In this document: in pieces, positions 8,343-27,611 of the stretch
How positions within the stretch are numbered: the first letter of the stretch is position 1
Layout: each line of letters opens with the position of its first letter
Assembly (NCBI GenBank): GCA_965213705.1
Contig: OZ243913.1
Location: 2,176,001-2,240,000, forward strand
Source of the DNA: Trueperaceae bacterium
Lineage (GTDB): Bacteria > Deinococcota > Deinococci > Deinococcales > Trueperaceae
Reading direction: 5' to 3'
DNA: 64,000 bases
Program-made: the position numbers and the translations under genes
Notes under the pieces: generated by a model
The model's database searches: none
What the model was told of the DNA's origin: nothing
Seen by the model: only the letters and a program-made list of their open reading frames with translations

Positions 8343-8867
8343 CTGAGCCTCGTTTTGCCCTCCAGCAGCGAAAATTTGGTTTGTAGGCGTGTAGACTCGA
8401 GCTTGTTTATCACGAGGCGATTCTGTCGGTGTCAGGCGCGTTTCGACAAGGAACCCCCAGCGAACGCTGCCCGAACCGCCAAGGTTCACTCACCTTTGTT
8501 CTGATTCCTCTGGTCGCTTCTCGGCACTTTGAAGCCTGTTTTCTTTCGTACTGTTCCTTTAGCCTGCACTGTCAAAAGCCAAGTTGAACCGAACCTGCCC
8601 CCTGAGTTTAGACTCGCTTCGAGAACGGAAGGGCGTGTTTGGGTGAGGTATACTGAGTCATTATTTGGATAATTGGCTTGGGGGGCCGATGGGGGATCCA
8701 ACTAAAAAGCAGTTAAACCTTTCTTTCGCCAACGACATTTGCGCTCAAAAAGAGCGCGCCACTGCGCTCAAGCAACAGCTTCTGATCGACCTTTGGTGTC
8801 TTTATCCAGACTTGTACCGGCGCCTGCAACGTAGGTGTTTCCGTCGTTTGCAGCCAGTAGTTGTTTG

Positions 8868-9848
8868 ATGAACCCCAGCGTAGGCAGCTACCTGAGTTCG
8901 TATCTGGTTGTCGCCCACGCCCTCAGTGTGAAAGACGCCTACCGTTTGGCGCGCATCTTTTTGCACCGCACGAGGCGATACCGAACCCCGCGCTTCGAAT
9001 TTTACTACCAGCGCTATCGACGCACTCACGTTGACCCGTTGGAGGAACGCTCTCTAGCTGCCTTTGACACCTTCGTCGCCACTGCCAAGCTTCAAGTTGT
9101 TGTCGACGAACTCTGGCACGTCCTCGACAACTGGATGACAAACGTCTTTGTCTACCGCGACGCATTCCCCGTCTTGCCGCCCACGATGTTCTACCCGCCG
9201 CTGCAGGTCGTTGTTCTCGAGGAGCATCCCGACCTCGCCGTCGTCCCGGAACTCAAAGACGCGATGCGGGTCTCGCAGTGGTTGGCCTTGTCAGATGAGT
9301 TGGTGGAAGCGTACCAAGTCGCCATCGACCAGTGGCGGCGTGAGTTTGACGTAGAAGTCACCTGGTCTCGCGAGTTCGAACGCCTCCGCGACGTTTACCT
9401 GCGCGAGGTAACGGCGAGCTGGGACTGGGGCAAGTATAAAAAGACCGAGCACGCCACCGTCTTATTTGCGCTGCGTGAGGTCGAGGGGGTCGGCAACGAC
9501 ATCCTCGCCGAGGCGTTCTCGTTGGCGAAGTCCACTGTTCAGGGCCACATACGCGATATTGAGACGACGATTGGCTACAAACGTAAGCTATTTGGCGGTC
9601 ACCGGGGCGGCAGACACAGCCAAGACCGCAAGGACGCCTTGAAAACGCTCGAGCGCCGCCTGGCAGCCTACGACGCACGCCGAGAGCAGGCGCAGCGGTT
9701 GGCCCAACGGTGGGTGCCGGTGCGAGGCTACGACCTGGAAGCGTACGAAGCCACCGCCGAACCGCTCCGGCAAATCGTAGCACCACCCCCCGACCAGGCA
9801 CTTCCTTTCGTGCCTCGCCTGCGTGCCAAAGGCGATGAGTGGGCATGA
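8868..9848 (+). CDS. hypothetical protein with C-terminal HTH-like segment
   Basis: long ORF; NDILAEAFSLAKSTVQGHIRDI resembles an HTH; overlaps upstream ORF 8665-8868 (TGATG). Confidence 0.6.
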   Translation: MNPSVGSYLSSYLVVAHALSVKDAYRLARIFLHRTRRYRTPRFEFYYQRYRRTHVDPLEERSLAAFDTFVATAKLQVVVDELWHVLDNWMTNVFVYRDAFPVLPPTMFYPPLQVVVLEEHPDLAVVPELKDAMRVSQWLALSDELVEAYQVAIDQWRREFDVEVTWSREFERLRDVYLREVTASWDWGKYKKTEHATVLFALREVEGVGNDILAEAFSLAKSTVQGHIRDIETTIGYKRKLFGGHRGGRHSQDRKDALKTLERRLAAYDARREQAQRLAQRWVPVRGYDLEAYEATAEPLRQIVAPPPDQALPFVPRLRAKGDEWA

Positions 9849-10003
9849 TGGCGGTTGGGCGACCGACCCATTTAGCCAGACGGCCCGACCCCATTTGTCA
9901 CGGCAGCCGAACCTTTTAACCGAGCCGACCGGCTCTATGTAAGTTGGTGACCCCTTGCTAGGCTCTGGACGGGTCCGGACCCAAGCCAGCAAAAGGGAGT
10001 CAC

Positions 10004-10213
10004 ATGATGTCTAACAAGCTCGAAGGAATCGACTACGTGACAAAACGCACGGGGTGGTGCGTTTACGACCTCGTCGCTCAAGGGCTGCTCCCGGCAGTGA
10101 GGGCGGGGCGACGCCTTTACTTCGACCCGCAGCAGCTCGAAGCTTGGATCGAACAAGGCGGCCGCGCGAGTACATCAGAAGGCGTTGCTGAACCGTGGGT
10201 ATCCGGGCCATGA
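10004..10213 (+). CDS. excisionase-like HTH protein
   Basis: 69 aa; VYDLVAQGLLPAVRAGRRLYFDPQQLEAWI is a typical Xis/HTH_17 pattern; AAGGGAG RBS. Confidence 0.8.
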   Translation: MMSNKLEGIDYVTKRTGWCVYDLVAQGLLPAVRAGRRLYFDPQQLEAWIEQGGRASTSEGVAEPWVSGP

Positions 10214-10713
10214 GGTGGGCCTGGACCTGGCCCTTGTCGCCGACCCAAAAGCTCACCCTCGTCGCCCTCGCCTGGCACAGCGACGGCCACGGCCACTGCT
10301 GGCCCAGCCAGGCGCGCCTCGCCCGGCTTTCGGGACTCAGCGAGCGCACCGTGCGTCGAGCGGTGAGAGACCTCGAGACCCAGCAGCTTCTCCGCCGCCA
10401 CAAGCGCACCACCGAAGCCGGGGCCGCAACGAGCGACCTCTACGTTCTGCAGCTCACGACCCACCCCCCGGACACGGTGACCGCCCCCAGCGGACAGGCT
10501 GACCTCCCGGTGCGGACAGACAAGGTCGCGCCCCCCGGACAGGGTGACCGCCAAAAGGGTTTGAAAGGTCATCTAAAGGGTTGGGAAAAAATCGAACAAG
10601 ACCGCCAACGCGCTGAAGAAGCCGCTGACGTGTTCTGGAGCGACCAAGAACCTGCCCAAGACCGAGAGCGGTGGCTGCGGCTCCTCAAGGGCACACCCCC
10701 GGAGACAAGCTGA
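10195..10713 (+). CDS. winged-HTH replication-initiator-like protein
   Basis: AMRWAW...KLTLVALA...CWPSQARLARLSGLSERTVRRAVRDLE resembles the N-terminus of phage/MGE replication proteins. Confidence 0.75.
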   Translation: MGIRAMRWAWTWPLSPTQKLTLVALAWHSDGHGHCWPSQARLARLSGLSERTVRRAVRDLETQQLLRRHKRTTEAGAATSDLYVLQLTTHPPDTVTAPSGQADLPVRTDKVAPPGQGDRQKGLKGHLKGWEKIEQDRQRAEEAADVFWSDQEPAQDRERWLRLLKGTPPETS

Positions 10714-11321: not shown

Positions 11322-12570
11322 TCGTTCATCCCCACGCACGTGGGGAATAGGTCATCCTTTTCCTTCCTTGTCTTCGCTTTTACGGTTCATCCCCACGTGC
11401 GTGGGGAACAGCTCCTAACACAACCGACTTGTTGGCCCAAAGACGGTTCATCCCCACGTGCGTGGGGAACAGGTTCGCGTGGCAATGGCCCGAGTAGCGC
11501 CACTCGGTTCATCCCCACGTGCGTGGGGAACAGTCTTTTGGTTTGTAAGTTTGTAGTGCTGTCTACGGTTCATCCCCACGTGCGTGGGGAACAGATTACC
11601 AGCCCCAGGCTGCTAGAGTTGTCTTGCGGTTCATCCCCACGTGCGTGGGGAACAGCGTCGTCTAAATCCTTGCGCTGCTTGAAGGCGCGGTTCATCCCCA
11701 CGTGCGTGGGGAACAGACTTGTACCGATGCTCGCCAAAGCAAGCTCGGCGGTTCATCCCCACGTGCGTGGGGAACAGGTTGAAGGCGTCCATCGCGCCCG
11801 ACGTGACGGCGGTTCATCCCCACGTGCGTGGGGAACAGGTCTCGCGTGGCGGGCTGCTGGGCTTCTTAGGCGGTTCATCCCCACGTGCGTGGGGAACAGG
11901 TCCTCTACTATCGGCAGCTGCGGCAGGTTGGCGGTTCATCCCCACGTGCGTGGGGAACAGGGGTCGGGTGGGTCGGAAGGCAAGGGCAACTTCGGTTCAT
12001 CCCCACGTGCGTGGGGAACAGGGTAGCGGAAAGCGGGCCGCTGTGAATTGTTCCGGTTCATCCCCACGTGCGTGGGGAACAGCCCACCAAGAACGAACGC
12101 GGCACTCGCGTCTGCGGTTCATCCCCACGTGCGTGGGGAACAGGTTGGCGAGCACCGGGTCGACCTCGGTCGGGTCGGTTCATCCCCACGTGCGTGGGGA
12201 ACAGGCGGGTGTACTTGCTTGCGGCTGGTGCCATTACGGTTCATCCCCACGTGCGTGGGGAACAGAACAGGGTCACACCAATAACTTCGAACTCCCACGG
12301 TTCATCCCCACGTGCGTGGGGAACAGGACACGGTAGTTGCGGCGGTTCCCCAGTATCTCGGTTCATCCCCACGTGCGTGGGGAACAGTGAACGACATAAA
12401 AAACAAACTCGAACACGCTCGGTTCATCCCCACGTGCGTGGGGAACAGCTTGCTGTTGTGGTCGGCGTGGTCGTACTTCTCGGTTCATCCCCACGTGCGT
12501 GGGGAACAGGGCGTCGTTTATGCTATTTAGGACGGTTCCGACGGTTCATCCCCACGTGCGTGGGGAACAG
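11322..12570 (-). CRISPR. type I-E CRISPR array 1: 21 repeats (1 degenerate trailer), 20 spacers of 32 nt
   Basis: 29-nt repeat CTGTTCCCCACGCACGTGGGGATGAACCG (minus strand) with 61-nt period; degenerate repeat at 11322; leader on the cas2 side. Confidence 0.98.
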
Positions 12571-12632
12571 ACTAGACCAGCACGTAAAAACTAGCCTTCG
12601 GAGGCCCCTATGTCTCCTTTAGAGTTGTCATG
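12571..12632 (-). promoter_or_regulatory. leader of CRISPR array 1 (overlaps the cas2 3' end)
   Basis: shares ACTAGACC...AAAAACTA...AGTTGTCA blocks with the array 2 leader. Confidence 0.7.
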
Positions 12633-12944
12633 GTCCTCAGCGGGTTCGACGAACATCTGTTCCCAGGCTGCATTTTTCACCGCCACCAATTGTACGCCAT
12701 CCAAGTCGATGACGCTTCGCTCGACATCGCCCGCCATACGAATGGCGAACCCTTGTTCGTTGTTGACTCGGTAAACCTGACAGCAGCGGCCTGTGCGCTT
12801 ACTCTCTTCGCACTTTTCCCACAGTAGGTCGCGCACGAGCGCGCTCAACTTGCCGACGAACACGCCGGTGGACACCTCAATCATCCAGCGGCTCAACTCG
12901 CCCCGCAAACTCGCCGGCACCTTCTCTAAAGTCATTACCACCAT
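12591..12944 (-). CDS. cas2: type I-E Cas2
   Basis: MVVMTLEKVPASLRGELSRWMIEVSTGVFVG, NEQGF, IDLDG. Confidence 0.95.
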   Translation of the reverse strand: MVVMTLEKVPASLRGELSRWMIEVSTGVFVGKLSALVRDLLWEKCEESKRTGRCCQVYRVNNEQGFAIRMAGDVERSVIDLDGVQLVAVKNAAWEQMFVEPAEDHDNSKGDIGASEG

Positions 12945-13860
12945 AGCTCACACCTCCTTTCACATCGCCGCCCGGGTCCCACAGCTCGCCGGGAGCTGCG
13001 CCGTCCGCCGCGAAACGTTCACCGTTTTCAGAATCGCCGCTGAACAGGCTGTGCAGGTCGCTGACGACGCGCTCGAGCAGCCGACTCTCGCGCATGGCGT
13101 CCCGAAGCCGGTGGCGGATGCGGCTTTCGACGCCTTCAGCGGATTCGCCCACCGTTTCGAACGCGGCGGGCACGACCACCTCGGTTTTGTACAGGTCGGC
13201 GATGTCGTAGACGAAAGAAAGTTGCTTGCCGGTGTGGACGAAGCCGAGCGCGGGGCTGTAGCCCGCCGAGACGATGCCCGCGTGGCAGACGCCGTACAAA
13301 CAGGCCGCCCCCGCCGAAAGCGCCCGGTTGATGGGGTCGGCGTTGCCCCAACTGCCGCGGCGGTACGAGCGGCCCGACCACGCCACGCCCGCTTCGGCGC
13401 TCGCTCTAGCGTAAATGGTGCGCACCCGCACACCTTCCTTGCCGCGAATCTGTTGCAGGGTGAGGCCGGGCTCGAGGCCGTCCGTAAAACGCATGGTGTA
13501 CATCTGCCGGACGACGTTCAGGTGTTTAACCGGGTCGGCCCACCACTGGGCTTGCCGCATGAGGTTGGCGCTGCTGCGCGTTTCACCCAAACCGCTCGCG
13601 TAGAAGCGCACGCCTTCCTCGCCGACCCAATTGACCAAGCAGCCGTTGTCGGCCAGCGCCTTGACGGCTTCGTGCGTGATGCTGGTGCCGGGGCCGAGCA
13701 TGAGGACGCCCAAGCTGGATACCGGCACGCTGACCTTGCCCTCCGCGCCGTACCAGGCAACGGCTTTGGCTTCTTGTTCGATGCGCCCGCGTTCGATGTA
13801 GAGGTACGAGAGGCTGTCGCGGAACTTGGGGAGTTCGCGGAGGTTTTTCGACGTTGCCAT
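12877..13860 (-). CDS. cas1: type I-E Cas1
   Basis: LGPGTSITHEA, WVGEEGVRFY, IRGKEGVRVR, PALGFVHTG, SFVYDIADLYK. Confidence 0.96.
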   Translation of the reverse strand: MATSKNLRELPKFRDSLSYLYIERGRIEQEAKAVAWYGAEGKVSVPVSSLGVLMLGPGTSITHEAVKALADNGCLVNWVGEEGVRFYASGLGETRSSANLMRQAQWWADPVKHLNVVRQMYTMRFTDGLEPGLTLQQIRGKEGVRVRTIYARASAEAGVAWSGRSYRRGSWGNADPINRALSAGAACLYGVCHAGIVSAGYSPALGFVHTGKQLSFVYDIADLYKTEVVVPAAFETVGESAEGVESRIRHRLRDAMRESRLLERVVSDLHSLFSGDSENGERFAADGAAPGELWDPGGDVKGGVSYGGNDFREGAGEFAGRVEPLDD

Positions 13861-13861
13861 G

Positions 13862-14470
13862 TCAGCCTTTCGCAATCGAAAGGAGGCCCATACCGAAACC
13901 CTTGGCAGAACCGACGCCCGCTTTGAGAGTTGCTAAAAAAGCTGCCGGTTCCTCCACCACCAACCGCCCTTGGAAGGTAACGGCGTGAAGCGTCATAGTT
14001 TGGCTGTCCCGCTTTGCTTGAAGAGTTTCTTGTTGTAAGGGCGTGACGGACAAGAGGGCAAAACCACCCTGTTCCGCTTTGCGCTGAAGCCACTCGAGCT
14101 GCTCGTCTAAGTCGTATAAGGCCAGCCGCTTTTTCTTGTTCCCGACAGTACGCTTGACTGTGGGATTGGCTCGCAGGTGAAACGTGAGGGTCTGACCTTG
14201 CGCAAAAGCGAGGTCTACAGCTTTAGACGCTGGAGCTTCTTTCAAGTAACTGGGGGGCACATCTTCGACAAGATACGACCAGTCCGGTTTGTGGAGCGTC
14301 TGCACTATAATGTTGATTTGGTTTTGTCCGTCGACCCGCCACAACAGCCGCTCATCCTCCTGCGCTACGCCCCGGCTCAGTGTGCGGTGAAGGTCGTAAG
14401 GGTTTTCTAGGTCACGGCGGGCTTTGGCGCTGCGCAGGTTCGGCGTGAGTTTGGAGAGGTACAGACTCAT
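13862..14470 (-). CDS. cas6e: Cas6e (Cse3/CasE) crRNA-processing endonuclease
   Basis: YDLHRTL, LRANPT and C-terminal G-loop GVGSAKGFGMGLL. Confidence 0.95.
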   Translation of the reverse strand: MSLYLSKLTPNLRSAKARRDLENPYDLHRTLSRGVAQEDERLLWRVDGQNQINIIVQTLHKPDWSYLVEDVPPSYLKEAPASKAVDLAFAQGQTLTFHLRANPTVKRTVGNKKKRLALYDLDEQLEWLQRKAEQGGFALLSVTPLQQETLQAKRDSQTMTLHAVTFQGRLVVEEPAAFLATLKAGVGSAKGFGMGLLSIAKG

Positions 14471-15132
14471 GCGGCGTCCTCGAAAGGGTTGGGGCGGCTC
14501 TCGACGAGCACGCGGCGCTGCCCGAACTTGCGTGTTGAGAACGGCCCGAGCGGCTGGTCGGCGCGGAGGTGTGTGCCCCGCGGGTCCTCGGTGGCAAAGC
14601 GCAGGGTCGCGCGCCCCGACGCCGCGGGGTGAAGGGGTGGAAAAGTCGTGAGAGCCGCGCCGAGGGGTTCGTCTCTCAGTCCTTTGGGCAAGTAAACGCC
14701 GGGGCTAGGTACGAAGGATTTACGACCCAGAGAGAGCGGCCAGTGAGGCGTTTTGAGGACTCGGTGGAGGGTAGCTAAAAAAGACTTATCGGGATGCTCG
14801 AGTCCGACCAGAAAAACTGCGTCCGCTAAGTAAAAGCGCTCGCTTACCGAGTTGCGCATGTTTCGGTTGCTGTTCAACCTGCCATCCGCCTGTACAATTT
14901 CTTGGGCGGTGTGGTAATCGCGTTTCAAAACACCTTCTTTATCCACCCGCACACCCATTTTGAGCGCCGCCAAGTCGCTCACGTCCTCGCTGCGGTCGCG
15001 CCCCAGGGCGGCGGCCAACAGCCCCACAACTCCGCTCTTACTGGGCTCTAGGTGTGTATCTCGCTGCTCGAAGCGGCTGCTCGTGCCCCAGGCCTGCATG
15101 GGTCCGGCGAGACGTAGTAGAAGCGTCGGCAT
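14467..15132 (-). CDS. cas5e: Cas5e (CasD)
   Basis: LLLRLAGPMQAWG, PSKSGVVGLLAAALG, DYHT, YLADA, LGRKS. Confidence 0.96.
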   Translation of the reverse strand: MPTLLLRLAGPMQAWGTSSRFEQRDTHLEPSKSGVVGLLAAALGRDRSEDVSDLAALKMGVRVDKEGVLKRDYHTAQEIVQADGRLNSNRNMRNSVSERFYLADAVFLVGLEHPDKSFLATLHRVLKTPHWPLSLGRKSFVPSPGVYLPKGLRDEPLGAALTTFPPLHPAASGRATLRFATEDPRGTHLRADQPLGPFSTRKFGQRRVLVESRPNPFEDAA

Positions 15133-16289
15133 TACGCACCCACAGCACGTTTGGCTGCCGCGACGCTTGAGGTGACAACGTCCTCTAAGCTCTCGCGTAC
15201 GTTAGCCGCCAAGTGCGCCAAGTCGCCCGTCAACTTGAGCACCGCGACCTCGTTTGCGTCGCCCACACCGAGCGCTTTATCGAAGGCAGCCCACTGCTCG
15301 TCCAAACGCGCTACCGACGCCTCTGTAAGAGAATACTTCCGGTCCGGGCGCACAGGTTTTTCAAAGGCGTTGGCGAGGTTGCGCGGTGCGGCATCGGAGC
15401 GCACGCTCACGGCGAAAAAACCGGGCGGGTTGTGGGCTGCAAAGCTGTTCTGTTTGCCCGAAGGCGCGGCGAAGTAGCTCGCCTCGAGAAAAGCTTTGAG
15501 CCCCTTTTCTAAAAGCTGGCTGTCACCCTGTAAGTTGTCAGCCAGCTTTTCTAAGTCGAGCGCGATGTAGCGATAGTAGCAGGCGCTGTTGAATTCGACC
15601 GTGCCGAGCATGTCCGCGCCCGCGTTGTCCTCCGGTTTTAGGTCGTCTACAGCGGTGTAAAAATCGAACTCGCGCTGCACCGCGTTGGTGCTGATGGCGT
15701 GGGCTACCTGGCAGGCGGCGTCACGGTTTTTTTCGGGCAGGTCGGCGAGCATCCGCCCAAAGAGGGCCAAGTCTACGGCCTTGCCGCCGTCCAAACTTTT
15801 CTCGAGGGCGGCAACGAGGTCTTTCTGAACATTACCCTTCGCGTCCTTTTTCGACTTTTTCTTGTCATCTTCCGCTGGGATAGCTTTGCGCAGCTCATCC
15901 CAATATGCGTCGATGCTGTTTGCCATATCTCGGATTTCGCTTTTGCCCAGGTAAAGAAGATACTGCGTCTTGCCCTCGTCCACGCTGAGCGACAGGCCCG
16001 CCAACGCGAGTTCGACTACCTTCCCAGCTTCGGCCATGTTCCGGCCCTTTTGCTCGAGTTGCCCGACCAGCTCGGCGGTTATGCGTTTGGTACGCACGGC
16101 CAGCGCGTCATCCTCAAGAAGTTTCTCGGCGCGAACATAGGTCCGCATGGCTCGCTTCAAGCTTTGCGAACTGATGCGGGCGCGGCGGTAGCCGCCGAAC
16201 TCGCAGTCTTTGGGGCTGCCGGTGTCGTCACGGTTCAAGTTGCTGGGGGCGAAGTTTTGCAGGGCGTGGATTTCTAGGAGTGCTTTCAT
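15132..16289 (-). CDS. cas7e: Cas7e (Cse4/CasC)
   Basis: [50 protein letters not shown]. Confidence 0.97.
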
Positions 16290-16867
16290 CGGGGTCCTTT
16301 CTGGTTTTCTTTTGTGTCGGAGGTGTCGGGAACATCGGGGTTAAAGCCGTAGTACTGTTGCGCCCAGCGGCGCTGAACATAGCGGCTCTGGTTTTGCCAG
16401 CCAAAGAGGTCGCGGAGTAGTGCCGCGTAGTTTAGGCCGATGCCCTCAGCTTTTAGCAGGCTGACGAGTTGGCGCAAGTGGTAGACGAGCTGTTTCTCTT
16501 CTTCCGCAGCCAAGAGCGCGAGAAAACGTTTCTCCAGGCTCCCGCTCTCGCGCCTGTGACTAAGAACCGCCATTGCCTTGCCGAAACCCCCCTGAGAGGC
16601 GGACTCTGGATGAGAGGCGTAGAGCCCCGCGACGAGGTAGAACATGGCGCGTCGCCAGTAGCCTGTGCTTTCGTCCAGCGTTGCGACGAACGGCTCGACG
16701 TAGGGGAATGCTGGAACATGCGTGCCCAGGTCGAAGCTGAGACTTTTTCTAAGCTCGGCCAAGTGTTGCCGTTTGGCTCCCCGCGTTTTGGCCGGGTTGA
16801 GCTTATCCAGGCGATGAATAAAGCGTTCGGCTACATCTGTTCGTGTGCTCGAGGGCGTGTCTGTCAT
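16286..16867 (-). CDS. cse2: Cas11e (Cse2/CasB)
   Basis: helical protein with [35 protein letters not shown]; lies between cas8e and cas7e. Confidence 0.93.
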
Positions 16868-18378
16868 GCTGCCTCCTGTGGGGCTGGCCCAGTGGTTTCT
16901 TCGCGCAGGCGTTTGAGGTAGGTGTTGACGACCTTGCTCGCCTCAGCCCCGGCCCGCCAGGCGCGCTCGTTTTCCCCGGCGCTCTTTAAGGCAAGCTCCC
17001 AGGCTTCGCGCGTCACGGCGGTGATTTGCCCCAACCACCAACTGAACCGCTCCTCAAAGGTTTGAGTCTCGAAGCGCTCCAGCAGTTCGGGAAAGCGGGT
17101 CTCGAGCCTGCTCCAGTAGTGCATACTGGCGGGAAAGCTCGAGGCTAAGTTGCGAACATCTGCCGGGTCGGGTTTGCGTTCGCCGACGCTCAGTAACTTC
17201 TCCGCCAGGCGCTGCGTCGCGCCGTAGAGGGTGCGCCCGCCGTCGTCGGCGTACTCGAGCAGCCGCTTCATACCGGCGTAAGCTCCCGGTTGGAGGAGCA
17301 CCTGCGGTACATTGAACTGCTCGGTGCGCCACAGCACGATTTTGGCTTTGTCGTTGCTCAGGCCGGAAATTAATAGGGTGAGGGGGTCGCTGCGCTCGAG
17401 GACTGCGTACAGATTGCTCGCGTGTTTTACTGTCTGAGGCGCAAAAAACTTTTTGCCTTCAGGATCATCAGGATGAGGTATAAGTGCGTGAAAGTCCCGC
17501 CAGAATGCCTTGTATTTGTTGAAGGATACCGGCAGAAGCCCCCGCTTGTCGTCCCTGCGGTAGGCCAGCATGGGGTCGAGACTGCCTTCACTATCAAACT
17601 TGATTCCTGCCGCATAATGCAGCGCCGACACGGGCTTGCCTTCCTCGGGTTCTTGCAACTTAACGATGCGCGTCAGCCAGGTGTAACGCTCGGTGAGCCC
17701 TCTCGCGCCGCGCGGTTTGGCGGCTTTTACCGCCGCGCTCTTTGGTGTTCCTTGCTCCCAAATAGGCGCGTCATCCTCATTCGCCTCTTCAAAGTAAGGA
17801 ACGAGGTTGAGAACCAGTGTCTCGAACAGATTGCGACCTTGCGGCAGCACGAACGCCGCGCCGCCTGCCGGGCTGGGGCTGTAGCCCGCGCCCTCGGGGA
17901 TGGCGGTCATCTGCCGGGTCACGAGCAGTTGCGCGATTTCGGCGTGCGTCAACTCCGGCGGGTCGGCCTCCGCGGTGTGGTCGAAGAGGAGTTTGTTCGT
18001 GCCGCTGGCGAGTTCGGCTGCGAGCCGGGCGACCCCAGACACCTTATCTTCCGAGTCTGGCACCTGATAGAAGGGCCTTTCAGGGTGGAACAGGTCGAAG
18101 CGGTCTTGCCAGTGCTTGAGATAAGCGCCGACGCGCTCCGCCGGGAACCGACCCTGTTCGAACAACTCGACCCCTTCGTCGGTAGTGCGTGGCCCGTCCA
18201 GCGCCCGGTACAGCACAGCTAATAAAAAGCGGTGCAGCGCCGGGAGTACGGCGGGGGAGGAGTGGACTAGCCGCGCGTAGCGGTGGGCGTTTAACAAAAC
18301 CCCCTTTAGCGAGTCCTGGCCTAGCGAGCCGTCTGAGTTTTCGACCGGCAGCCAAGGTTCATGGACGAGGTTAAACAT
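16864..18378 (-). CDS. cas8e: Cas8e (Cse1/CasA)
   Basis: FNLVHEPWLPV, RFDLFHPERPFYQ, G.NLFETLVLN, AFWRDF; AAGGAGG RBS. Confidence 0.94.
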   Translation of the reverse strand: MFNLVHEPWLPVENSDGSLGQDSLKGVLLNAHRYARLVHSSPAVLPALHRFLLAVLYRALDGPRTTDEGVELFEQGRFPAERVGAYLKHWQDRFDLFHPERPFYQVPDSEDKVSGVARLAAELASGTNKLLFDHTAEADPPELTHAEIAQLLVTRQMTAIPEGAGYSPSPAGGAAFVLPQGRNLFETLVLNLVPYFEEANEDDAPIWEQGTPKSAAVKAAKPRGARGLTERYTWLTRIVKLQEPEEGKPVSALHYAAGIKFDSEGSLDPMLAYRRDDKRGLLPVSFNKYKAFWRDFHALIPHPDDPEGKKFFAPQTVKHASNLYAVLERSDPLTLLISGLSNDKAKIVLWRTEQFNVPQVLLQPGAYAGMKRLLEYADDGGRTLYGATQRLAEKLLSVGERKPDPADVRNLASSFPASMHYWSRLETRFPELLERFETQTFEERFSWWLGQITAVTREAWELALKSAGENERAWRAGAEASKVVNTYLKRLREETTGPAPQEAA

Positions 18379-18413
18379 TTCGGCCTCCTTTCAAAAGTAG
18401 TGTAAGAGGGGGG

Positions 18414-18432
18414 TGCGTCATGTAGTGACGTC
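18414..18432. promoter_or_regulatory. palindromic operator-like site at the cas8e promoter
   Basis: GCGTCA-N5-TGACGT just upstream of a minus-strand TACACT -10 box (18399-18404). Confidence 0.5.
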
Positions 18433-18435
18433 GCC

Positions 18436-18470
18436 AAAATAAAGAAGTGAGGCGCGGGATGCGCCTCACT
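18436..18470 (-). terminator. rho-independent terminator
   Basis: minus strand AGTGAGGCGC-ATCCC-GCGCCTCACT followed by TCTTTATTTT. Confidence 0.8.
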
Positions 18471-18474
18471 ACGG

Positions 18475-18657
18475 CTAACGGTCTACGTCATTATCGAACG
18501 AGCTTGTCAGCATCAACTTTTGCCACTCTCCGTGTCGAAGGTTCAAGGCCGACTGAAAGTGGGGCCAGAACTTCCATAGCACGGGGCGGTCTCGCTCATC
18601 AACCTGGTATAGGCTGTCTCTAAAGGCTTGATAGGTTGCGTCATCTATGTCAAGCAG
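18475..18657 (-). CDS. candidate 60-aa small protein (CTG start); possible Cascade-repressed toxin
   Basis: open frame LLDIDDATYQAFRDSLYQVDERDRPVLWKFWPHF... ending just before the terminator; GAGGA 9 nt upstream of CTG, inside a hairpin; not in the ORF track. Confidence 0.4.
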   Translation of the reverse strand: MLDIDDATYQAFRDSLYQVDERDRPVLWKFWPHFQSALNLRHGEWQKLMLTSSFDNDVDR

Positions 18658-18826
18658 AGCACCACATCCTCACTTTGGTGAGAGGATGCCCTTCACGCTT
18701 GACCCCCACGTGACCAAGATTTAGAGCGGGGGTGGTAGATTAAGGTGAAGGACATATTCCTTCGGTGAAGAGCGAGATGACTATTGGAGTAGGAGTCTCG
18801 CTCTTCTCGTTTGCGGTCACGAGCTT

Positions 18827-18855
18827 ACAGTAGCTCGAGTTCTTTCGAAAGTCAA
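18827..18855 (-). promoter_or_regulatory. sigma70-type promoter
   Basis: minus strand TTGACT-17 nt-TACTGT. Confidence 0.7.
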
Positions 18856-18860
18856 TGATA

Positions 18861-18888
18861 TTTATCCTCTTGCAGAGGAGTTGTACTT
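18861..18888 (-). promoter_or_regulatory. AAG-PAM target site of the mini-array spacer
   Basis: AAG-TACAACTCCTCTGCAAGAGGATAAA versus spacer TACAAGTCCTTTGCATAAGGTAAAA (19/25 identical). Confidence 0.75.
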
Positions 18889-18908
18889 AACTTCATCAGG
18901 TGACGTCA

Positions 18909-18991
18909 AATATAAACCCCACATTAGTGGGGAAGTTTTTTACCTTATGCAAAGGACTTGTATGGTTCATCCCAACGTTGTCGGGAAAATA
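18909..18991 (-). ncRNA. crRNA-like regulatory RNA (creA/creR-like): degenerate repeat, 25-nt spacer, degenerate repeat
   Basis: minus strand TATTTTCCCGACAACGTTGGG|ATGAACCA, spacer, AACTTCCCCACTAATGTGGGG; hairpins retained (one G-U pair) and handle 7/8 identical to ATGAACCG. Confidence 0.75.
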
Positions 18992-19051
18992 CTTCATTAT
19001 CTATTCTACCCATAACCGTTGTACCTACGTGGTGCAGGACTATCTTTTGGG

Positions 19052-19450
19052 CTACCCTGTTACTCCCTCTGCTTTTTCATCGGGCTTTATGCTGAGCGGT
19101 TTTGGCGCGGTAGCTTCAAGCATTGGTACAAACAGCGTAGCGACCTCATCACGGGTCTCGGCATCTTGCAAGGTGATGTCAAGACGGCACCCTACCGCGT
19201 GGGCGTAGCGGCTGAGCACCTCGAGCGCTAATGCCGTACCCTCGACACTTTCAATCTGCGATACGCGTGGACGCGTCACGCCCATGCGCTCGGCAACCTC
19301 ACGCTGGCTCAAACCCTTAGCCTCACGCATAGCGCGCAGCGCCGCTCCAATCTCTTCGTTAGCGACCTCACGGTACAGAGCAGCGTAACCGGGGTCTTGC
19401 AAAAACTCTTTGCTTAGGTCGCTCGCTCGTTTCAAGGGACGTTTTGGCAT
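19052..19450 (-). CDS. XRE/HigA-type HTH antitoxin
   Basis: LRAMREAKGLSQREVAERMGVTRPRVSQIES cro/C1 HTH; lies downstream of a RelE-like toxin gene. Confidence 0.85.
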   Translation of the reverse strand: MPKRPLKRASDLSKEFLQDPGYAALYREVANEEIGAALRAMREAKGLSQREVAERMGVTRPRVSQIESVEGTALALEVLSRYAHAVGCRLDITLQDAETRDEVATLFVPMLEATAPKPLSIKPDEKAEGVTG

Positions 19451-19454
19451 GGCG

Positions 19455-19814
19455 TTACTCCTTGTTATATTCCTCGTAAGCTGCCAAAGCTTTCCTAATA
19501 AGCTTACGGTCAGCTTGGTTCTGCTGCTTCACCTCTCCCGCGGCGGCGATGAATATATTTTTGTCCTGTTGCCAGTAATAAATGCGTACGGCGTTACGTC
19601 CGGTTTTGCCGCGCAGTTCGTAAATCGGCCCATCTATATGACTGACGTAGGGAAACGACAGTGTTTTACCTTTGTCCTCGAGCAGCGCGATGAGCCAATC
19701 GACTTTCGCAGAAGCTTTAGGATTGGAGCGTCTAAGCACCTTGCGCCACTCCCGGAACTCGGAGTAACCGTTTTCGTCCTCGTACTCATAAACAATGTAC
19801 GGTGTAGAACTCAC
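19455..19814 (-). CDS. RelE/HigB (Gp49-like) toxin
   Basis: FPYVSHIDGPIYELR...VRIYY pattern; toxin-first gene order. Confidence 0.85.
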   Translation of the reverse strand: MSSTPYIVYEYEDENGYSEFREWRKVLRRSNPKASAKVDWLIALLEDKGKTLSFPYVSHIDGPIYELRGKTGRNAVRIYYWQQDKNIFIAAAGEVKQQNQADRKLIRKALAAYEEYNKE

Positions 19815-19915: not shown

Positions 19916-22900
19916 CTACTCATACACAATTCCCAACGCATCGTCATAGCGAACAGTCAATTTCCCAACCACCGCCACCCCCCCCTCAAAAATGAGCGGG
20001 AAACAGTAGCGCAGCAGCGGCTGCTTCTGCCAAGCGGGTACTGGATGTTTAACAAGCTCGAACACAAGCCCTTTACGGCTCAGCTTGAGGTGTTGCAGAT
20101 AGAGGGTTCTCGCCGCTTGCCATGAGGGTTCCTTGTTCAACACGATTTCGGTTTCGTAGGAGGGCTCGAGGTAAAGCTTGTCATCCTTTTTGTGTAAGGG
20201 GATGACCGTGACGCTGGGATCGCCTAAACGGGTCATGGGCCGGTAATGTTCATGAATGCTGGGGTCTTCGTCGTCCTCCGCTAAAATATCTTTTGCGACA
20301 CCGTCGATACCTGCATAATCTTTGGGCAACGCTACTACAGTCTTATTATCGTGTGCCTTTCGTTTGTGAAGTTGCACCACCTCTTCTTGATTGGCGCGGC
20401 TTTGCTCAACCACCTCACGGGCAAAACCCGGCAGCGCCGTCACATCGGGCTCGCCGTATACGGCTTTGACAAGCGGCTCAAAGTCTTCAGGTAACGCAAT
20501 AACTTCCTTATCAGCCAAGGTCCACCACGTCATGTACAGAGTGAACGCTTCGTAAATTCGGTCGAAATATTCGCCGCTTTCGCCGCTGATGTCCGGGAGC
20601 GTCTCGGCGTCGGTCAGCCCTGCCACGTAGAGGACGGGCGACGCGTGGGTGGCGGAACGTTCGCGCTCGTGGCGGTGCATCCGTCCGGCACGCTGCAAGA
20701 GTAGATCGACAGGTGCTAAGTCACTCACCATCACGTCGAAGTCCAAGTCCAGGCTCTGCTCGACCACCTGCGTGGCGATGAGAATAGCTTTGGCTGGGCG
20801 CTCCCCATTCTTGCCGAACTTCTCCAGCACCGCTTGTTCTCGCTTTTGCCGTTCCGCCGCAGGATAACGAGCGTGAAACAAATAAACCTCGGTGTCGTCA
20901 GGCAAACGCTTTCCGGTCTCGAGACTTTCACCTTCTCCCAACAAGCTGTAAAGAGCCTGTGCCCGCTGCACTGTGTTTAGAATAGCCACCGCACAACCGC
21001 CGTCCGTTACTAAATTTGTGAGGAGGTTTGCGACTGTCTCGAGTCCCAAGCTGACCCTTTTCAAATCTATAGGCTTCTGCTCTCTCACCGAGAACGAATA
21101 CTCCTTGGTCTTTCCGCCCAGCACCTGCGTGATGCGCGGGTAGGAGACAGACTCCTCGGCCTCGCCACCCCCAAAAGCCTTGACTAAATCTAAACGCTTG
21201 GCGGCGGGCAACGTCGCGCTCATGATGATGACCGACGAGCCGAGCGCGTGCAGCCAGCGCACGAGGCGCTCGATGAGTTTGCTCGTGTAAAGCTCGTAGG
21301 CGTGAACTTCGTCTAAAACAACCGTGCGGTTGCCCAACCCCCACAGGCGGACAAACTGGTGCTTGATGTTGAGAACGCTCAAAAGCGCCTGGTCGACCGT
21401 GCCCACCCCGTTTTCAGACAGCAGCGCTCGCTTTTTACTTGTGAACCAGGTTCTGGCCCACACCTCGCCCTCTTTGTTGTCCACCCCATCTACATCCTTA
21501 ACTTGGATGGTGGCGTAAGCGTCGTTGAGCAGGCTTGCGCCGTGCAAAAGCTGCAAGTCGGGTGGCGCGTCGCGCTCGAAGGTGCCGAGCAGGTCTTTGG
21601 TGCGCTCGAACATGGCATTACCCGTTGCTTGTGTGGGCAGCGCCACGTATAAGCCTCGGTGTCCCAACTGCCGCTGTAAAGTGACGTGAGCGTAGAAGGC
21701 AGCCTCCGTTTTACCTTCACCCATCGGTGCTTCGATGATGATGAGGGAGGGTTTATGAGTTTTCTCAACAAGGTCGACGATGTGCGCCTGAAGACCGTTG
21801 GGCTCAAAAGAAAAAATGGTGTTGAAGGCTCGCGGTTCCGCCGCTAAAGGCTCACGGCGCTCCCAGCCTATCTTGTCTAGGGCCTTACGCGCTTTTAGCA
21901 GTGAATCGAGAAAGTGTTCTCGCAGATTTATTACTTTTCGGTCGGTAGGAAAAAAGTCGACCGTTGAGCCAATCCAATCGGCGAAGCTGGTCAAGCCTGC
22001 CAACCTGATAAAGCCTTGCCCTGTGAGTGCGGTGGTGGTCGGCGGCGAGATTTGAACGACTTCTACTGCTTTCAGGAACTCAGTTAGAACCTCCTGCCGG
22101 GTCTCTTGCCAAGCGTCGTCGCCCATATCTTGCTTTGGAATTACGTTGTCTGACAAGTCACCCTTTGCAGTTCGCAGGCCGTGATGTGCGCCTACGGCGT
22201 CGGCAACTTGAGCGACGAGATTCCTGCCTAAGCCGTAGGTTTTAAGTTCGGTCTGCAAGATTTTCTGTGAGAGTTTTCCGTGTGCAGTGCCCTTGTCACC
22301 CTTACTAAAAGTAAGCCCCGCCGCCTCGACCACCAGTCGTCCTGGTTCCCATTGCCGCTGGAAGGCCGGGGTCGCCTTGCCGATGTCGTGCAAACCGGTG
22401 AGCGCGGCTATCCACCGTTTAGCGTCGCCGGGCTCGAGCCCCAAATCCTCCGCGTAAAGCCGCAAAGTCTGCGGGGGTTCGCGCTCGAGCAACACTTGCG
22501 CCACCGCCGCCACATCCAACAGATGTCCCACGAGGCTGTAGCCCTGCTCGTCTTCGCCACTTTTGGCCCACAGGGCCGCCGCCTTTGCTGAAAGATTGGT
22601 CATGGGTTCAGTGTGTCCTTTTGGTGCGTCATTTACTGACGCGAGCCTCGTTTTTAGGTGGGGATGCTGTAAGGCGACGGCGCTGGCTTCACTCAACCAG
22701 CGTTCGCGCAAAGCTTTGGGCGCTAGAACGTCAACTCGTGGCCCCCAGCTTTGCACCCAAGGGAGAATTTCTCTTGGAAAGCCTGCGTTGTCGGTGCCCA
22801 CCTTGATTTCGACCTCGAGCGAGCCGTCCGCGAGTTCTTCTTTTAAAACCAAGTTGGGATAACCGCCTTCTCTAATACGCGCAGCAGCCTCTGGCTTGAA

Positions 22901-23617
22901 GCGCAGATACACCGTAGCAACCTCAGCTTCTTGCCCGCCCATCACGCCCCAGGCAGCGCTCAGATATTCACTCGGCACAAAGGTTTCAGGAACAATGTAG
23001 CTGGTTTCCAAAATCCGAACATCGCTCATCCGCGAGAGCTTGAAGGTGAGGACTCGGTCGAAGCTACATTCTTTGCCGATGGCGTACAAAGCCAAGTTGT
23101 CGCGACTGACCTCGATCAAATAAGTTTCCAGCTCGCGCCACTCTGCACGGTTGGGCTTGTCAGCCGTAGTGTATTTGAAACGCAGAACTCTGCTCTCAAA
23201 CCAAGCCCGCGCCACAAACTCCAAGGCTCGGTCGTCGCTGGAACGCACTTTCAGGTCTTGCGCACTTGCCGCCGCGATTCCCTTGGCAGGTTCGGGTAGC
23301 AGTGACGCCAGCTTCTCCAACGCCGAGCGGTAGTAAAGGTTTCGAGTGGGTGAGTGGTGATACAAAAGCCTTACCGCCGCGTGGACTGCAAGCCCTTCGA
23401 CAGCGTTGAGCGACGAACCCGTCGGCGTGAGACGGTGGCGGAAATCCTCTGAGGTTTCGATAGCACAACCGCTCTCACGCAGCGTCTGAATGTCGCGCTG
23501 GATGGTTCTGACCGGCACGCCGTAGCGCTGGGCAAGTTCCTTGATGGTGTACGGCTTTAGCCGCAACAGTTCAGGCAACTCCGCCAAGCGCCGAGCTTTA
23601 CTCTGCGTCCGCGTCAC
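19916..23617 (-). CDS. cas3: HTH-WYL-Cas3 fusion (HD nuclease plus SF2 helicase)
   Basis: N-terminal HTH (KELAQRYGVPVRTIQRDI) and WYL-type region (LYAIG...TFKLSRM...SAAWG; WVQSWGPRVDVLAP); then LWAKS, HLLDV, HDIGK, HHG, ADWIGS, APMGEGKT, DEVH, SAT, QVVEQSLDLDFD, QRAGRMHRH. Confidence 0.93.
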   Translation of the reverse strand: MTRTQSKARRLAELPELLRLKPYTIKELAQRYGVPVRTIQRDIQTLRESGCAIETSEDFRHRLTPTGSSLNAVEGLAVHAAVRLLYHHSPTRNLYYRSALEKLASLLPEPAKGIAAASAQDLKVRSSDDRALEFVARAWFESRVLRFKYTTADKPNRAEWRELETYLIEVSRDNLALYAIGKECSFDRVLTFKLSRMSDVRILETSYIVPETFVPSEYLSAAWGVMGGQEAEVATVYLRFKPEAAARIREGGYPNLVLKEELADGSLEVEIKVGTDNAGFPREILPWVQSWGPRVDVLAPKALRERWLSEASAVALQHPHLKTRLASVNDAPKGHTEPMTNLSAKAAALWAKSGEDEQGYSLVGHLLDVAAVAQVLLEREPPQTLRLYAEDLGLEPGDAKRWIAALTGLHDIGKATPAFQRQWEPGRLVVEAAGLTFSKGDKGTAHGKLSQKILQTELKTYGLGRNLVAQVADAVGAHHGLRTAKGDLSDNVIPKQDMGDDAWQETRQEVLTEFLKAVEVVQISPPTTTALTGQGFIRLAGLTSFADWIGSTVDFFPTDRKVINLREHFLDSLLKARKALDKIGWERREPLAAEPRAFNTIFSFEPNGLQAHIVDLVEKTHKPSLIIIEAPMGEGKTEAAFYAHVTLQRQLGHRGLYVALPTQATGNAMFERTKDLLGTFERDAPPDLQLLHGASLLNDAYATIQVKDVDGVDNKEGEVWARTWFTSKKRALLSENGVGTVDQALLSVLNIKHQFVRLWGLGNRTVVLDEVHAYELYTSKLIERLVRWLHALGSSVIIMSATLPAAKRLDLVKAFGGGEAEESVSYPRITQVLGGKTKEYSFSVREQKPIDLKRVSLGLETVANLLTNLVTDGGCAVAILNTVQRAQALYSLLGEGESLETGKRLPDDTEVYLFHARYPAAERQKREQAVLEKFGKNGERPAKAILIATQVVEQSLDLDFDVMVSDLAPVDLLLQRAGRMHRHERERSATHASPVLYVAGLTDAETLPDISGESGEYFDRIYEAFTLYMTWWTLADKEVIALPEDFEPLVKAVYGEPDVTALPGFAREVVEQSRANQEEVVQLHKRKAHDNKTVVALPKDYAGIDGVAKDILAEDDEDPSIHEHYRPMTRLGDPSVTVIPLHKKDDKLYLEPSYETEIVLNKEPSWQAARTLYLQHLKLSRKGLVFELVKHPVPAWQKQPLLRYCFPLIFEGGVAVVGKLTVRYDDALGIVYE

Positions 23618-24038
23618 CCACCCTCTTTTCTCCCCCCTTTACCTCCCACAGCACCGTGACCCCTGCAAACTTCTCAAATTCCGAGTCACGGCTGACGAGC
23701 GGTAAGTCCTCGACCAGCGCCTGCGCCGCCAAAGCTCGGTCAAAGGGGTCGCTGTGCTCGTGGGCCAACTCTCCTTCTTTCAGCGCGTGAACGCTGCTGA
23801 AAGGCAAGTCCGTAAAGCTGTACTGCGCCAGGCGACGATGGTAGTTGTGCCACAAGGATTCAGCTTGGGGCAGTTTGCCAATCCGCACCTTGATAGATAG
23901 CTCCCAAGCGGTAATAGCTGAGGTGTACACTTGTCGGTCACGTTCACGGAGCAAGGCTAGAATGCTCTCCGGCAACATTTCAGGGCTTACGCTGTACCAC
24001 AGCAGCACGTGGGTGTCGAGCAAAACCCCTTTACTCAT
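23598..24038 (-). CDS. VapC PIN-domain toxin
   Basis: LLDTHVLLW, SAITAWE, HSDPFDR, SRD. Confidence 0.92.
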   Translation of the reverse strand: MSKGVLLDTHVLLWYSVSPEMLPESILALLRERDRQVYTSAITAWELSIKVRIGKLPQAESLWHNYHRRLAQYSFTDLPFSSVHALKEGELAHEHSDPFDRALAAQALVEDLPLVSRDSEFEKFAGVTVLWEVKGGEKRVGDADAE

Positions 24039-24046
24039 TGAGCGAC

Positions 24047-24301
24047 TTACTCATCGCTGCGCAGTTTGGGGTTGTGCCAAGCGTCCAGATTTTCCAATGG
24101 GCGCAAAGACTCTTCGACAAACGTCTCATCGACGTCTTGCCGGTCGAGACCGACCGGCCGCAACGCCCCCGGTCCCTCAACCGGCACGAGCCGCACGAGG
24201 GGTTTGCCGTTACGGGCCACGACGACCTCGTCACCGGCAAGAGCCTGCTCGATAAGTTTAGAGAACTGCGTTTTAGCTTCGTGCATGTTGACTTGGGTCA
24301 C
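24047..24301 (-). CDS. Phd/YefM-family antitoxin
   Basis: VNMHEAKTQFSKLIEQALAGDEVVVARNGKP. Confidence 0.92.
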   Translation of the reverse strand: MTQVNMHEAKTQFSKLIEQALAGDEVVVARNGKPLVRLVPVEGPGALRPVGLDRQDVDETFVEESLRPLENLDAWHNPKLRSDE

Positions 24302-24396: not shown

Positions 24397-26376
24397 CGGT
24401 TCATCCCCACGTGCGTGGGAAACAGAGCGCTAGCGCGTCGGAAATGGAGAGCTGCAACGGTTCATCCCCACGGGTGTGGGGAGTAGCGCATCAGCACGCA
24501 GAAATTGCTTATCGGCAACGGTTCATCCCCACGGGTGTGGGGAGTAGGTGCAGGGTAGACTTCATATCGGTTTCCTTCCGGTTCATCCCCACGGGTGTGG
24601 GGAGTAGCGGAGGCGGGAGAAGTGGGGCAGGGTCCAGACCGGTTCATCCCCACGGGTGTGGGGAGTAGGGCGAGTACGCCGCGGCTGCCGAGACGCTGCC
24701 CGGTTCATCCCCACGGGTGTGGGGAGTAGCCGGGTGCCGGCCAGCAAGCTCGGCATCGACACGGTTCATCCCCACGGGTGTGGGGAGTAGTCAGGAGCAA
24801 GCCTTCTGGCTGTGGCTGTCCTCGGTTCATCCCCACGGGTGTGGGGAGTAGTTTGCGAGGATGGCTTTTCTCTAGCCAGACACCGGTTCATCCCCACGGG
24901 TGTGGGGAGTAGGACGATGTTGGCCGACGACTTTGCCGCGGTCGCGGTTCATCCCCACGGGTGTGGGGAGTAGCAGATATGGTTGAACCAGCTCTCTATC
25001 CCGTACGGTTCATCCCCACGGGTGTGGGGAGTAGTTCGACAGCATTCACCGTCACGAAAAACGGCGCGGTTCATCCCCACGGGTGTGGGGAGTAGGTCCT
25101 TTAGATTAACGGTCTAAAGGTAACGCCCGGTTCATCCCCACGGGTGTGGGGAGTAGAAACCGTTCCCGACATGGGCGCGCTGTGGGCGCGGTTCATCCCC
25201 ACGGGTGTGGGGAGTAGTTTGGCCTGGGTCTCAGTGAAGGCCTCCCTTGCGGTTCATCCCCACGGGTGTGGGGAGTAGCGCCGACGCGAGTTTGCGAAAT
25301 TGTTCGATAACGGTTCATCCCCACGGGTGTGGGGAGTAGGGGGTGTTGACACCTGAGCCCGCCCCGGTCTACGGTTCATCCCCACGGGTGTGGGGAGTAG
25401 CTTATGGACTTCTCACACTCCGCGCATGACGCCGGTTCATCCCCACGGGTGTGGGGAGTAGGGCATCGACACCAGCCGCTCTCAGGCCGACGCCGGTTCA
25501 TCCCCACGGGTGTGGGGAGTAGGACGAGACCAAGCTCAATACGCTGCACGAGGACGGTTCATCCCCACGGGTGTGGGGAGTAGCCCTACACCGAGCACAT
25601 GCTCGAGCGCACCCGCGGTTCATCCCCACGGGTGTGGGGAGTAGTCAAGTTTCGACATGTTGCGCGCTGCTGATGTCGGTTCATCCCCACGGGTGTGGGG
25701 AGTAGGTGGCTGCTCATGGGCGTGGTCGCCTCGCTGACGGTTCATCCCCACGGGTGTGGGGAGTAGCTTTGGTCGTGCGCGTCCTCTCGCTCTTTTAGCG
25801 GTTCATCCCCACGGGTGTGGGGAGTAGGCCCAAAGCGCCCTGCCGCCTGACGTGACCACGGGTTCATCCCCACGGGTGTGGGGAGTAGGGCAAGAATTTC
25901 GGCTTTGTGCTCGGCGGTCTCGGTTCATCCCCACGGGTGTGGGGAGTAGATGTCATACTGGTAATCGCTCATCCCCGCAGCCGGTTCATCCCCACGGGTG
26001 TGGGGAGTAGAAGGGTGAGCTTGCCGAGTATGTCCAGGATGACGGTTCATCCCCACGGGTGTGGGGAGTAGGTGGGCGCGGCTTTTCTTGTCCATCACCT
26101 CGGCGGTTCATCCCCACGGGTGTGGGGAGTAGCGTATCCGCTCCCCGCGTCGTAGCCTCTAAAACGGTTCATCCCCACGGGTGTGGGGAGTAGGCAGGGC
26201 TTCGTAGAGTTCAGCCCAATTCATACGGTTCATCCCCACGGGTGTGGGGAGTAGCTCCTTCCGGGGTTGCTGACGCAAATGCGCGACGGTTCATCCCCAC
26301 GGGTGTGGGGAGTAGCAGGGCGGGGCAGGGCTGAAAGTCTTTTTCACCGGTTCATCCCCACGGGTGTGGGGAGTAG
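24397..26376 (-). CRISPR. type I-E CRISPR array 2: 33 repeats, 32 spacers
   Basis: 32 copies of CTACTCCCCACACCCGTGGGGATGAACCG plus an array-1-type trailer repeat at 24397; 61-nt period with one 31-nt spacer; further repeat fragment at ~24360-24382. Confidence 0.98.
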
Positions 26377-27337: not shown

Positions 27338-27611
27338 ACCGGGTCAGTATCCAATGCAGACTTTGCAACGGCGCGGGGCGGGTGGAGGAGTTCACCTGCC
27401 CTTGCTGTTTAGGGAGTGGTACATTCGAGAAGCCGGTGTGTGCCGAGCTGCCAGAGCGTCCAAGCACGCCAACCTGTTCAACACCACCCCTGAGTACGCC
27501 ATGCGGAAGAAGCGCCTTCTCAAGACCAAACGCCAACGCAACACCGTGGCGCTTGGCATCTTGGGGCTGAGCGACTTTCACCTAGAGTCCGACGAACGGG
27601 AGGGGGCGTAA
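27334..27611 (+). pseudogene. small CxxCxGxG zinc-finger protein, probably frameshifted
   Basis: CRLCNGAG and CPCCLGSG motifs; a second frame continues to a stop overlapping the ardC start. Confidence 0.5.

Follow-up and report, generated by a model that had tools for sequence, protein, structure and literature searches.

A type I-E CRISPR-Cas locus in a Trueperaceae genome carries, between cas3 and cas8e, a mini-array whose guide would direct Cascade to silence the promoter of a 60-codon gene. The best reading of this module, from its sequence and by analogy with published systems, is a Cascade-repressed protein toxin of the CrePA/CreTA type, to which we give a probability of roughly 0.6. 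The first-pass annotation of the window (the whole stretch of 64,000 nt analysed here) had proposed that a Cascade guide represses the adjacent promoter, and this proposal is strongly supported by the replacement of both spacer and target in the closest relative and by matching pairs in 20 of 102 homologous loci. The same account described the silenced transcript without a protein; the 60-codon ORF (18475-18657) had been overlooked, hence the leaning on RNA-toxin precedents.

The mini-array and its target are contained in a complete type I-E locus that lies entirely on the minus strand. The locus runs from a CRISPR array upstream of cas3 (24397..26376) through a Phd/PIN pair, an HTH-WYL-WCX module fused in frame to Cas3 (19916..23617), a Gp49/HTH pair and a 670-nt gap to cas8e, cas11, cas7, cas5, cas6e, cas1 and cas2 (12591..18378, every frame open and complete), and ends with a second array downstream of cas2 (11322..12571). 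The repeat variants of the two arrays differ at several positions, with the stem and handle common to both. The Gp49 (DUF891) and XRE HTH genes, located between the mini-array and cas3 (19052..19814), form a type II toxin-antitoxin-like pair that we take to be HigBA-like; together with Phd/PIN (23598-24301), two such pairs are present inside the CRISPR locus. Mobile-element-type genes on either side (8835-10713 and 27611-28492; HTH_36 protein, ArdC-N with M78 domain) suggest that the locus is part of an integrated element. G025 (locus L011, Cas8e 89% identical), which is the closest relative, belongs to the same family as the source of the window and also has the in-frame WYL-Cas3 fusion (1229 aa), while a genome of the same genus (G027) gave no Cas8e match.

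The mini-array would be transcribed, on the minus strand, from a candidate -10 element (TAGAAT, 19003..19008) whose sequence is identical in G025. Degenerate repeat 1 (R1, 18963..18991), the source of the 8-nt 5' handle, matches the two array repeats at 19/29 and 17/29 positions and, as had been claimed, forms a hairpin with one G-U pair (a 6-bp stem) and keeps the handle ATGAACCA. It is followed by a regulatory spacer of 25 nt (18938..18962), as against 32 nt for 47 of the 48 array spacers, and by degenerate repeat 2 (R2, 18909..18937), in which the 3'-handle stem is kept. A T-rich run follows R2, and R2 and this run may also end the mini-array transcript. Upstream of the mini-array, 19020-19027 holds a 5-nt seed match after AGG that is too short and is not conserved in G025.

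The guide target (18861..18885, minus strand) is flanked by an AAG PAM (18886..18888), as are targets in 20 loci described below, and matches the spacer at 19 of 25 positions (1-5, 7-10, 12-15, 18-20 and 23-25). It lies just upstream of the -35 of a sigma-70-type promoter on the same strand, TTGACT-N17-TACTGT (18827..18855; -35 at 18850-18855, -10 at 18827-18832). The target had been said to abut this promoter; it is indeed next to it, but the two are not in contact, the target ending 5 nt before the -35. We note that this promoter was not called by a consensus scan and rests on comparison with relatives: G025 has TTGACT and TATAGT at the positions of the two hexamers, and in a second relative, from the contigs of run X2, the -10 hexamer reads TATACT. 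In the 4.25-Mb genome, both strands considered, 18861-18885 is the single non-self site with 19/25 spacer matches (four sites reach 18), and only there are AAG and positions 1-5, 7-10 and 12-15 all matched. None of 300 shuffles of 18380-18908 reached 18 matches. The array spacers had no convincing protospacer in their own genome, and array protospacers give no confirmation of the PAM; AAG is the canonical type I-E PAM according to the accessible text of PMC10120712. The positions and sequences first assigned to the repeats, spacer, AAG, target, -35, -10 and terminator all proved correct.

The pairing of spacer and target was compared across 364 genomes of the class Deinococci, in which 120 match rows gave 102 cas8e-upstream regions (excluding second fragments and weak partial matches; four of the regions are short ends of contigs). 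AAG-flanked targets were scored by the number of matches over positions 1-11 without position 6 (maximum 10), with a cut-off of at least 9/10. A relaxed scan of the 102 regions returned 34 candidate mini-arrays, and 20 of these, including that of the window, have an AAG target at or above the cut-off, a score reached by 2 of 1094 non-cognate pairings. Most of the 14 candidates under 9/10 lie within coding sequence. Two loci missed by the relaxed scan (L072 and L075) were added by eye, giving 22 mini-array loci. The module is present in four of the six sampled families of the class.

The spacer/target covariation that the first-pass annotation had advised looking for in homologous loci was found. 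G025 has flanks 84-87% identical to the window and keeps AAG and TTGACT, and its spacer, target and leader have been replaced; the new pair differs from that of the window yet matches, with a 32-nt spacer and an AAG target of its own matched at 23 of the first 24 positions. Across the 20 loci, match rates were 98/100 at positions 1-5, 5/20 at position 6, 7/20 at position 12, 33/40 at positions 13-14 and 6/19 at position 18, and positions 6, 12-14 and 18 had played no part in selecting these loci. When similar spacers were collapsed to one locus per seed, position 6 was matched in 3/17 and position 12 in 7/17. Mismatches cluster at positions 6, 12 and 18, which is the Cascade R-loop pattern; in type I-E, every sixth position is non-pairing. 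The same periodicity is given for I-F1 in the accessible part of PMC10120712. Kin among the loci are not independent and the counts therefore overstate the case, yet 17 different seeds give the same pattern. The shortest mini-array spacer has 14 nt and the longest 33 nt. Six of the 20 targets are on the opposite strand, which tandem duplication would not produce. With covariation in 20 of 102 loci, chance is excluded and protein operators become a very unlikely reading, and on this comparative evidence the guide very probably directs Cascade to repress the adjacent promoter.

Two further loci differ in what lies beside the target. In L023 (genome G101), a mini-array has a weaker AAG target (8/10) beside the promoter of a gene that is presumably RelE-like. 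In L061 (G252), a target with an ATG PAM is found near cas8e with no convincing ORF, a CreR-like arrangement.

The silenced transcript had been described as ending at a terminator just before the cas8e promoter. The terminator (18436-18470) is there, but the transcript is not simply non-coding, as it holds both the 60-codon ORF and a 20-codon upstream ORF. The 60-codon ORF (18475..18657, minus strand) starts with CTG and encodes an acidic protein with three predicted helices, which we regard as the repressed cargo and a candidate protein toxin. Over 55 codons compared with G025 there are 19 synonymous and 12 non-synonymous changes (dN/dS 0.10, Fisher p 2e-8), and the ORF is very likely a real protein gene under purifying selection. 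Homologues P0003 and P0004 begin with M at the residue where the window ORF starts, and the start codon, CTG in the window allele, is ATG or GTG in homologues. Sequencing run X1, whose sequence is identical and from which the window may derive, has CTG as well. CTG is a weak start codon, and it is possible that the window allele is attenuated as a result. Predicted folding leaves the ribosome-binding site largely base-paired (0.24-0.28 unpaired); a weak start together with an occluded ribosome-binding site fits a gene that is kept low. We rejected a translation-coupled switch acting through the upstream ORF, as the accessibility of the ribosome-binding site was the same with or without the upstream ORF unwound. 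The structure model of the 60-residue protein has three helices (pLDDT 83), and neither a membrane helix nor a toxin motif was found in it.

A similar ORF of about 50-75 codons is present in 18 of the 22 mini-array loci (the G084 copy being frameshifted), and the other four have a different helical ORF (L071 and L086), a 26-codon stub (L048) or an open frame that lacks a canonical start (G028). With the G084 frameshift, L048 and G028 taken together, the ORF looks broken in 3/22. The different ORFs, at L071:255-395 and L086:1378-1515 in two f2 genomes, constitute a second small helical family behind targets, apparently unrelated to the first. Profile comparison indicated that the ORF groups of Deinococcus type (the f2 group, a label we infer from the names on homologous proteins) and Meiothermus type (the f5 group, for which Thermus- or Meiothermus-like is our guess) are homologous (83%, E 8e-6), and gave no significant link between the window-type group and the others (hhalign probability 2%). 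A leave-out profile searched against 3982 segments had the L052, G084 and G025 ORFs as its top non-training matches (E 0.004, 0.039 and 0.11), with the window ORF unlisted; the G084 ORF was matched weakly from both sides, by the window-type profile at E 0.005. It is probable that the window-type, Deinococcus-type and Meiothermus-type ORFs belong to one superfamily. A 24-sequence profile run over the 364 genomes gave 23 matches, made up of 16 training rows, G084 and six weak matches within long frames that were set aside as spurious. All 17 credible matches stand behind a mini-array with an AAG target, a count that is partly circular since 16 are the profile's own training rows, and the family profile found no copy away from a mini-array in these genomes.

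The ORF protein family is named by none of the libraries searched. In Pfam, the window ORF had no family at E 0.001, and 24 family members run at E 0.1 gave no KilAC match. NCBIfam, PHROGs, PDB sequences and the ESM Atlas returned nothing credible for the ORF or its alignment, and nor did PADLOC, in which weak DndF matches (E 0.003-0.013) were seen for 3 of 24 members. Foldseek gave no credible fold match to the ORF model, VIA-align reached a best Z of 5.9 with generic helices only, and tblastn against phages and plasmids gave no credible homologue. A search of a 50%-cluster library with the ORF produced one true match and four repeat-like ones; four metagenome loci matching the ORF were discarded as spurious. 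The name 'HEPN domain-containing' carried by one homologue was likewise rejected, as alignment A4 shows no conserved R-x4-6-H.

The leader of the transcript is strongly structured, and the transcript folds much better than its shuffles (z -4.95), with no Rfam match up to E 5. The stem sequence of 5' leader hairpin H1 (18767..18806, minus strand) differs in G025, where the fold and apex are kept, and in the second relative (run X2) the region is a 34-nt stretch with 3 differences. Between 18767-18806 of the window and L011:7574-7614, the leader hairpins have a conserved apex and swapped stems, and the f5 and G121 leaders share another conserved hairpin; leader hairpins are possibly protein-binding or protective elements. 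The 20-codon upstream ORF (18693..18755, minus strand) lies within a long hairpin; G025 has a 21-codon counterpart in this position, the peptide not being conserved. RNA CreT toxins of the tRNA-sequestering kind are defined by a Shine-Dalgarno sequence, a start, two rare codons and a hairpin. Of these, a Shine-Dalgarno-like run and a hairpin can be seen in the upstream ORF, whose codons 2-3 differ between the window and G025 and are not consistently rare.

Downstream, 3' of the 60-codon ORF, stands an intrinsic terminator-like hairpin (18436..18470, minus strand) of 10 bp with a U-rich tail, identical in G025. Beyond it, cas8e has a promoter motif of its own (18399..18430, minus strand), in which the palindrome CGTCA-N5-TGACG is followed after 11 nt by TACACT, the spacing of the PafBC consensus (tGTCgg-N10-tA-N3-T in the available text of PMC8635444). 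Of the 102 regions, 30 have this palindrome-N11-(-10) pattern no more than 170 nt from cas8e, whereas each of five control windows gave 0-1. The only places with the palindromic form in this genome are ahead of cas8e and inside the WYL-Cas3 gene (22627-22641, before an internal ATG). As the WYL-Cas3 junction holds a palindrome promoter motif together with an internal ATG, Cas3 may be made both alone and as the WYL fusion. Of 10 genomes checked, 8 have WYL genes at most about 7 kb from cas8e, namely 4/5 with the motif and 4/5 without, and a WYL-type activator of the cas8e palindrome promoter is accordingly put forward as a candidate. As far as PafBC-type WYL-activated promoters are described in the accessible text of PMC8635444, their spacing equals that of the motif before cas8e and within the WYL-Cas3 gene; the locus differs in having a full palindrome as the upstream element and in that the candidate activator is fused to Cas3. 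Between R2 and the PAM, 18891-18905 is a one-mismatch copy of the palindrome with no -10 at 11 nt, absent in G025.

Of the two outcomes entertained by the first-pass annotation, the terminator and the separate cas8e promoter motif between ORF and cas8e favour addiction, with the ORF as cargo, over read-through autoregulation, which is the weaker of the two in this locus. In several f5 loci, the spacing between ORF and cas8e is only 28-68 nt, with no strong hairpin between them. There, the same promoter can also drive Cascade, and autoregulation may add to the role of the module.

In the mechanism that we propose, Cas6e would cleave the mini-array transcript at the foot of the repeat stem, yielding a guide of about 54 nt. 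Loaded with this guide, Cascade would recognise AAG, open a partial R-loop across 18861-18885 and so stop RNA polymerase at the TTGACT promoter. Short or mismatched R-loops are not known to license Cas3, and the short spacer and five mismatches outside the flipped positions argue for repression without cleavage, as would be expected from the CreR/CreA precedent, the geometry itself being observed. The silenced transcript encodes the 60-residue helical protein; should Cascade be lost, titrated or inhibited by an anti-CRISPR, the protein would be made and growth arrested. The cas genes would be driven apart from the cargo by the WYL/PafBC-type promoter behind the terminator, where the motif is observed and the activator predicted. 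The toxin reading draws on three points: the ORF was never found without a guide, it is set up for low expression, and the two protein cargoes published for this position are both toxins. It is weakened by the absence of a toxin signature, by the three broken copies among 22 and by the partly circular co-occurrence count.

The broken copies also bear on an unlikely alternative of the CreR type, in which the guide sets the level of Cascade through a promoter reading into cas8e and the ORF is a harmless passenger or a decaying ex-toxin. Three of the 22 loci keep an intact guide-target pair despite a broken ORF, in several relatives ORF and cas8e are not parted by a strong hairpin, L061 combines a mini-array and a target near cas8e with the lack of a convincing ORF, and a I-E CreR is established in Salmonella (10.1101/2023.03.10.532045, accessible text). 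Such a role is harder to reconcile with the identical 10-bp hairpin and U-rich tail shared by the window and G025, with the promoter motif that cas8e has for itself, and with strong purifying selection on the ORF. A somewhat more doubtful proposal makes the repressed protein a regulator, one that relays the level of free Cascade to WYL-type cas promoters, or that makes a switch by inhibiting Cascade or Cas3 or by joining either as an accessory subunit; the outcome would be an RNA-plus-protein feedback. A small, acidic, helical protein found only in front of cas8e, with WYL genes within about 7 kb in 8 of 10 genomes checked and a one-mismatch palindrome copy at 18891-18905, is consistent with this idea; the palindrome copy is absent in G025, the protein has no similarity to any phage or defence family, and the published cargoes at this position are toxins (10.1101/2024.01.05.574328, PMC12055562, as far as accessible). 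A two-step Cascade feedback circuit of RNA plus protein was not found in the literature searched.

It is improbable that the active product is the RNA itself, a CreT-like molecule in which the structured leader with its Shine-Dalgarno sequence and upstream ORF is toxic and the 60-codon ORF secondary. The folding score of the transcript, the H1 fold kept with different stems in G025 and conserved in the relative from run X2, and the weak, occluded start of the 60-codon ORF are what such an RNA would lead one to expect. However, neither the upstream peptide nor its first codons show conservation, Rfam has no match, leaders from different loci are unrelated although nearly every target is followed by a small ORF, and selection acts on the protein. 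Least credible by far is the idea that a dimeric transcription factor, such as the adjacent HTH or WYL protein, uses spacer and target as a pair of operators, with the repeats incidental. A palindrome with 6-bp arms is present in the target of the window (shuffle p 0.008), of G028 (0.022) and, weakly, of G025 (0.082), and none was seen in 17 of the 20 targets; we rejected it as a general feature, as at most 3/20 targets have it. In addition, the HTH protein of G025 is near-identical while the target is different, and neither a PAM nor a 6-nt mismatch period has a meaning for a protein operator.

These observations add an unnamed family of small-protein cargo to CRISPR-guided gene silencing, and 17 distinct seed sequences yield the 6-nt R-loop period from natural variation alone. 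The locus would keep two control inputs apart, Cascade repression acting on the cargo and a WYL-type promoter serving the cas genes. Should the protein prove toxic, it would represent a new toxin class and likely an anti-anti-CRISPR layer, in genera with laboratory genetics. Our literature search, which took in few subscription papers or preprint supplements, found no published description of the module or the protein in Deinococcota, and published guide lists may include these loci. Prediction gives a mini-array to about 19% of I-E loci in bacteria (PMC10120712), and two supplementary files of that paper do not mention these genera.

The architecture as such is already known from Salmonella CreR, Citrobacter I-E CreT and Acinetobacter CrePA, which are compared here by their descriptions in the accessible portions of the cited sources; PMC12737573 was also drawn upon. 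Judged by its sequence, the mini-array has every sequence-testable feature of CreA/CreR guides: two degenerate repeats with handle and stem, a seed-anchored, PAM-flanked partial match, and a predicted promoter 5 nt from the target. The CreTA/CrePA feature of a distinct gene under the targeted promoter, within an intact cas locus, is found as well. Like CreR, for which autorepression has been demonstrated in Salmonella I-E, the module has a mini-array near cas3/cas8e, a 5' handle from R1 and a 3' handle from R2, an AAG PAM and a mismatch at position 6; CreR acts on the cas genes' own promoter and is not known to have a toxin, whereas the promoter targeted here leads into a selected ORF closed by a terminator (10.1101/2023.03.10.532045, PMC10120712). 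Cascade-guided repression of an adjacent small transcript is common to the haloarchaeal I-B and the Pseudomonas and Acinetobacter I-F CreTA systems, in which the toxins are RNAs, in contrast to the conserved element under selection here, which is a protein (PMC10120712, 10.1101/2024.01.05.574328, 10.1101/2024.10.29.618823).

Other close systems have protein cargoes. CrePA of Acinetobacter baylyi I-F similarly has two degenerate repeats, a PAM-flanked partial match at the promoter of a small protein and a place in the gap before the effector operon; CreP, encoded at the equivalent position, is a 103-aa protein with a KilAC domain, whereas the window protein, from a Deinococcota I-E locus, has 60 aa and no match to KilAC or any other Pfam family (10.1101/2024.01.05.574328). 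With its length of 60 aa and the KilAC domain missing, an identification as CreP was rejected. A further likeness is to CreTA of Citrobacter rodentium, also a I-E system in the gap between cas3 and casA, with a crRNA-like guide, a PAM-flanked partial target upstream of the -35 and a small ORF (PMC12055562). Its toxin ORF is translated, and translation is needed for toxicity. The two differ, by description, in that the Citrobacter ORF is 96 bp with an opposite-strand guide and an ATG PAM, and that of the window 183 bp with a same-strand guide and AAG. Toxicity has been demonstrated in Citrobacter, whereas the window locus presents a candidate toxin and adds a terminator and a separate cas8e promoter motif to the arrangement (PMC12055562).
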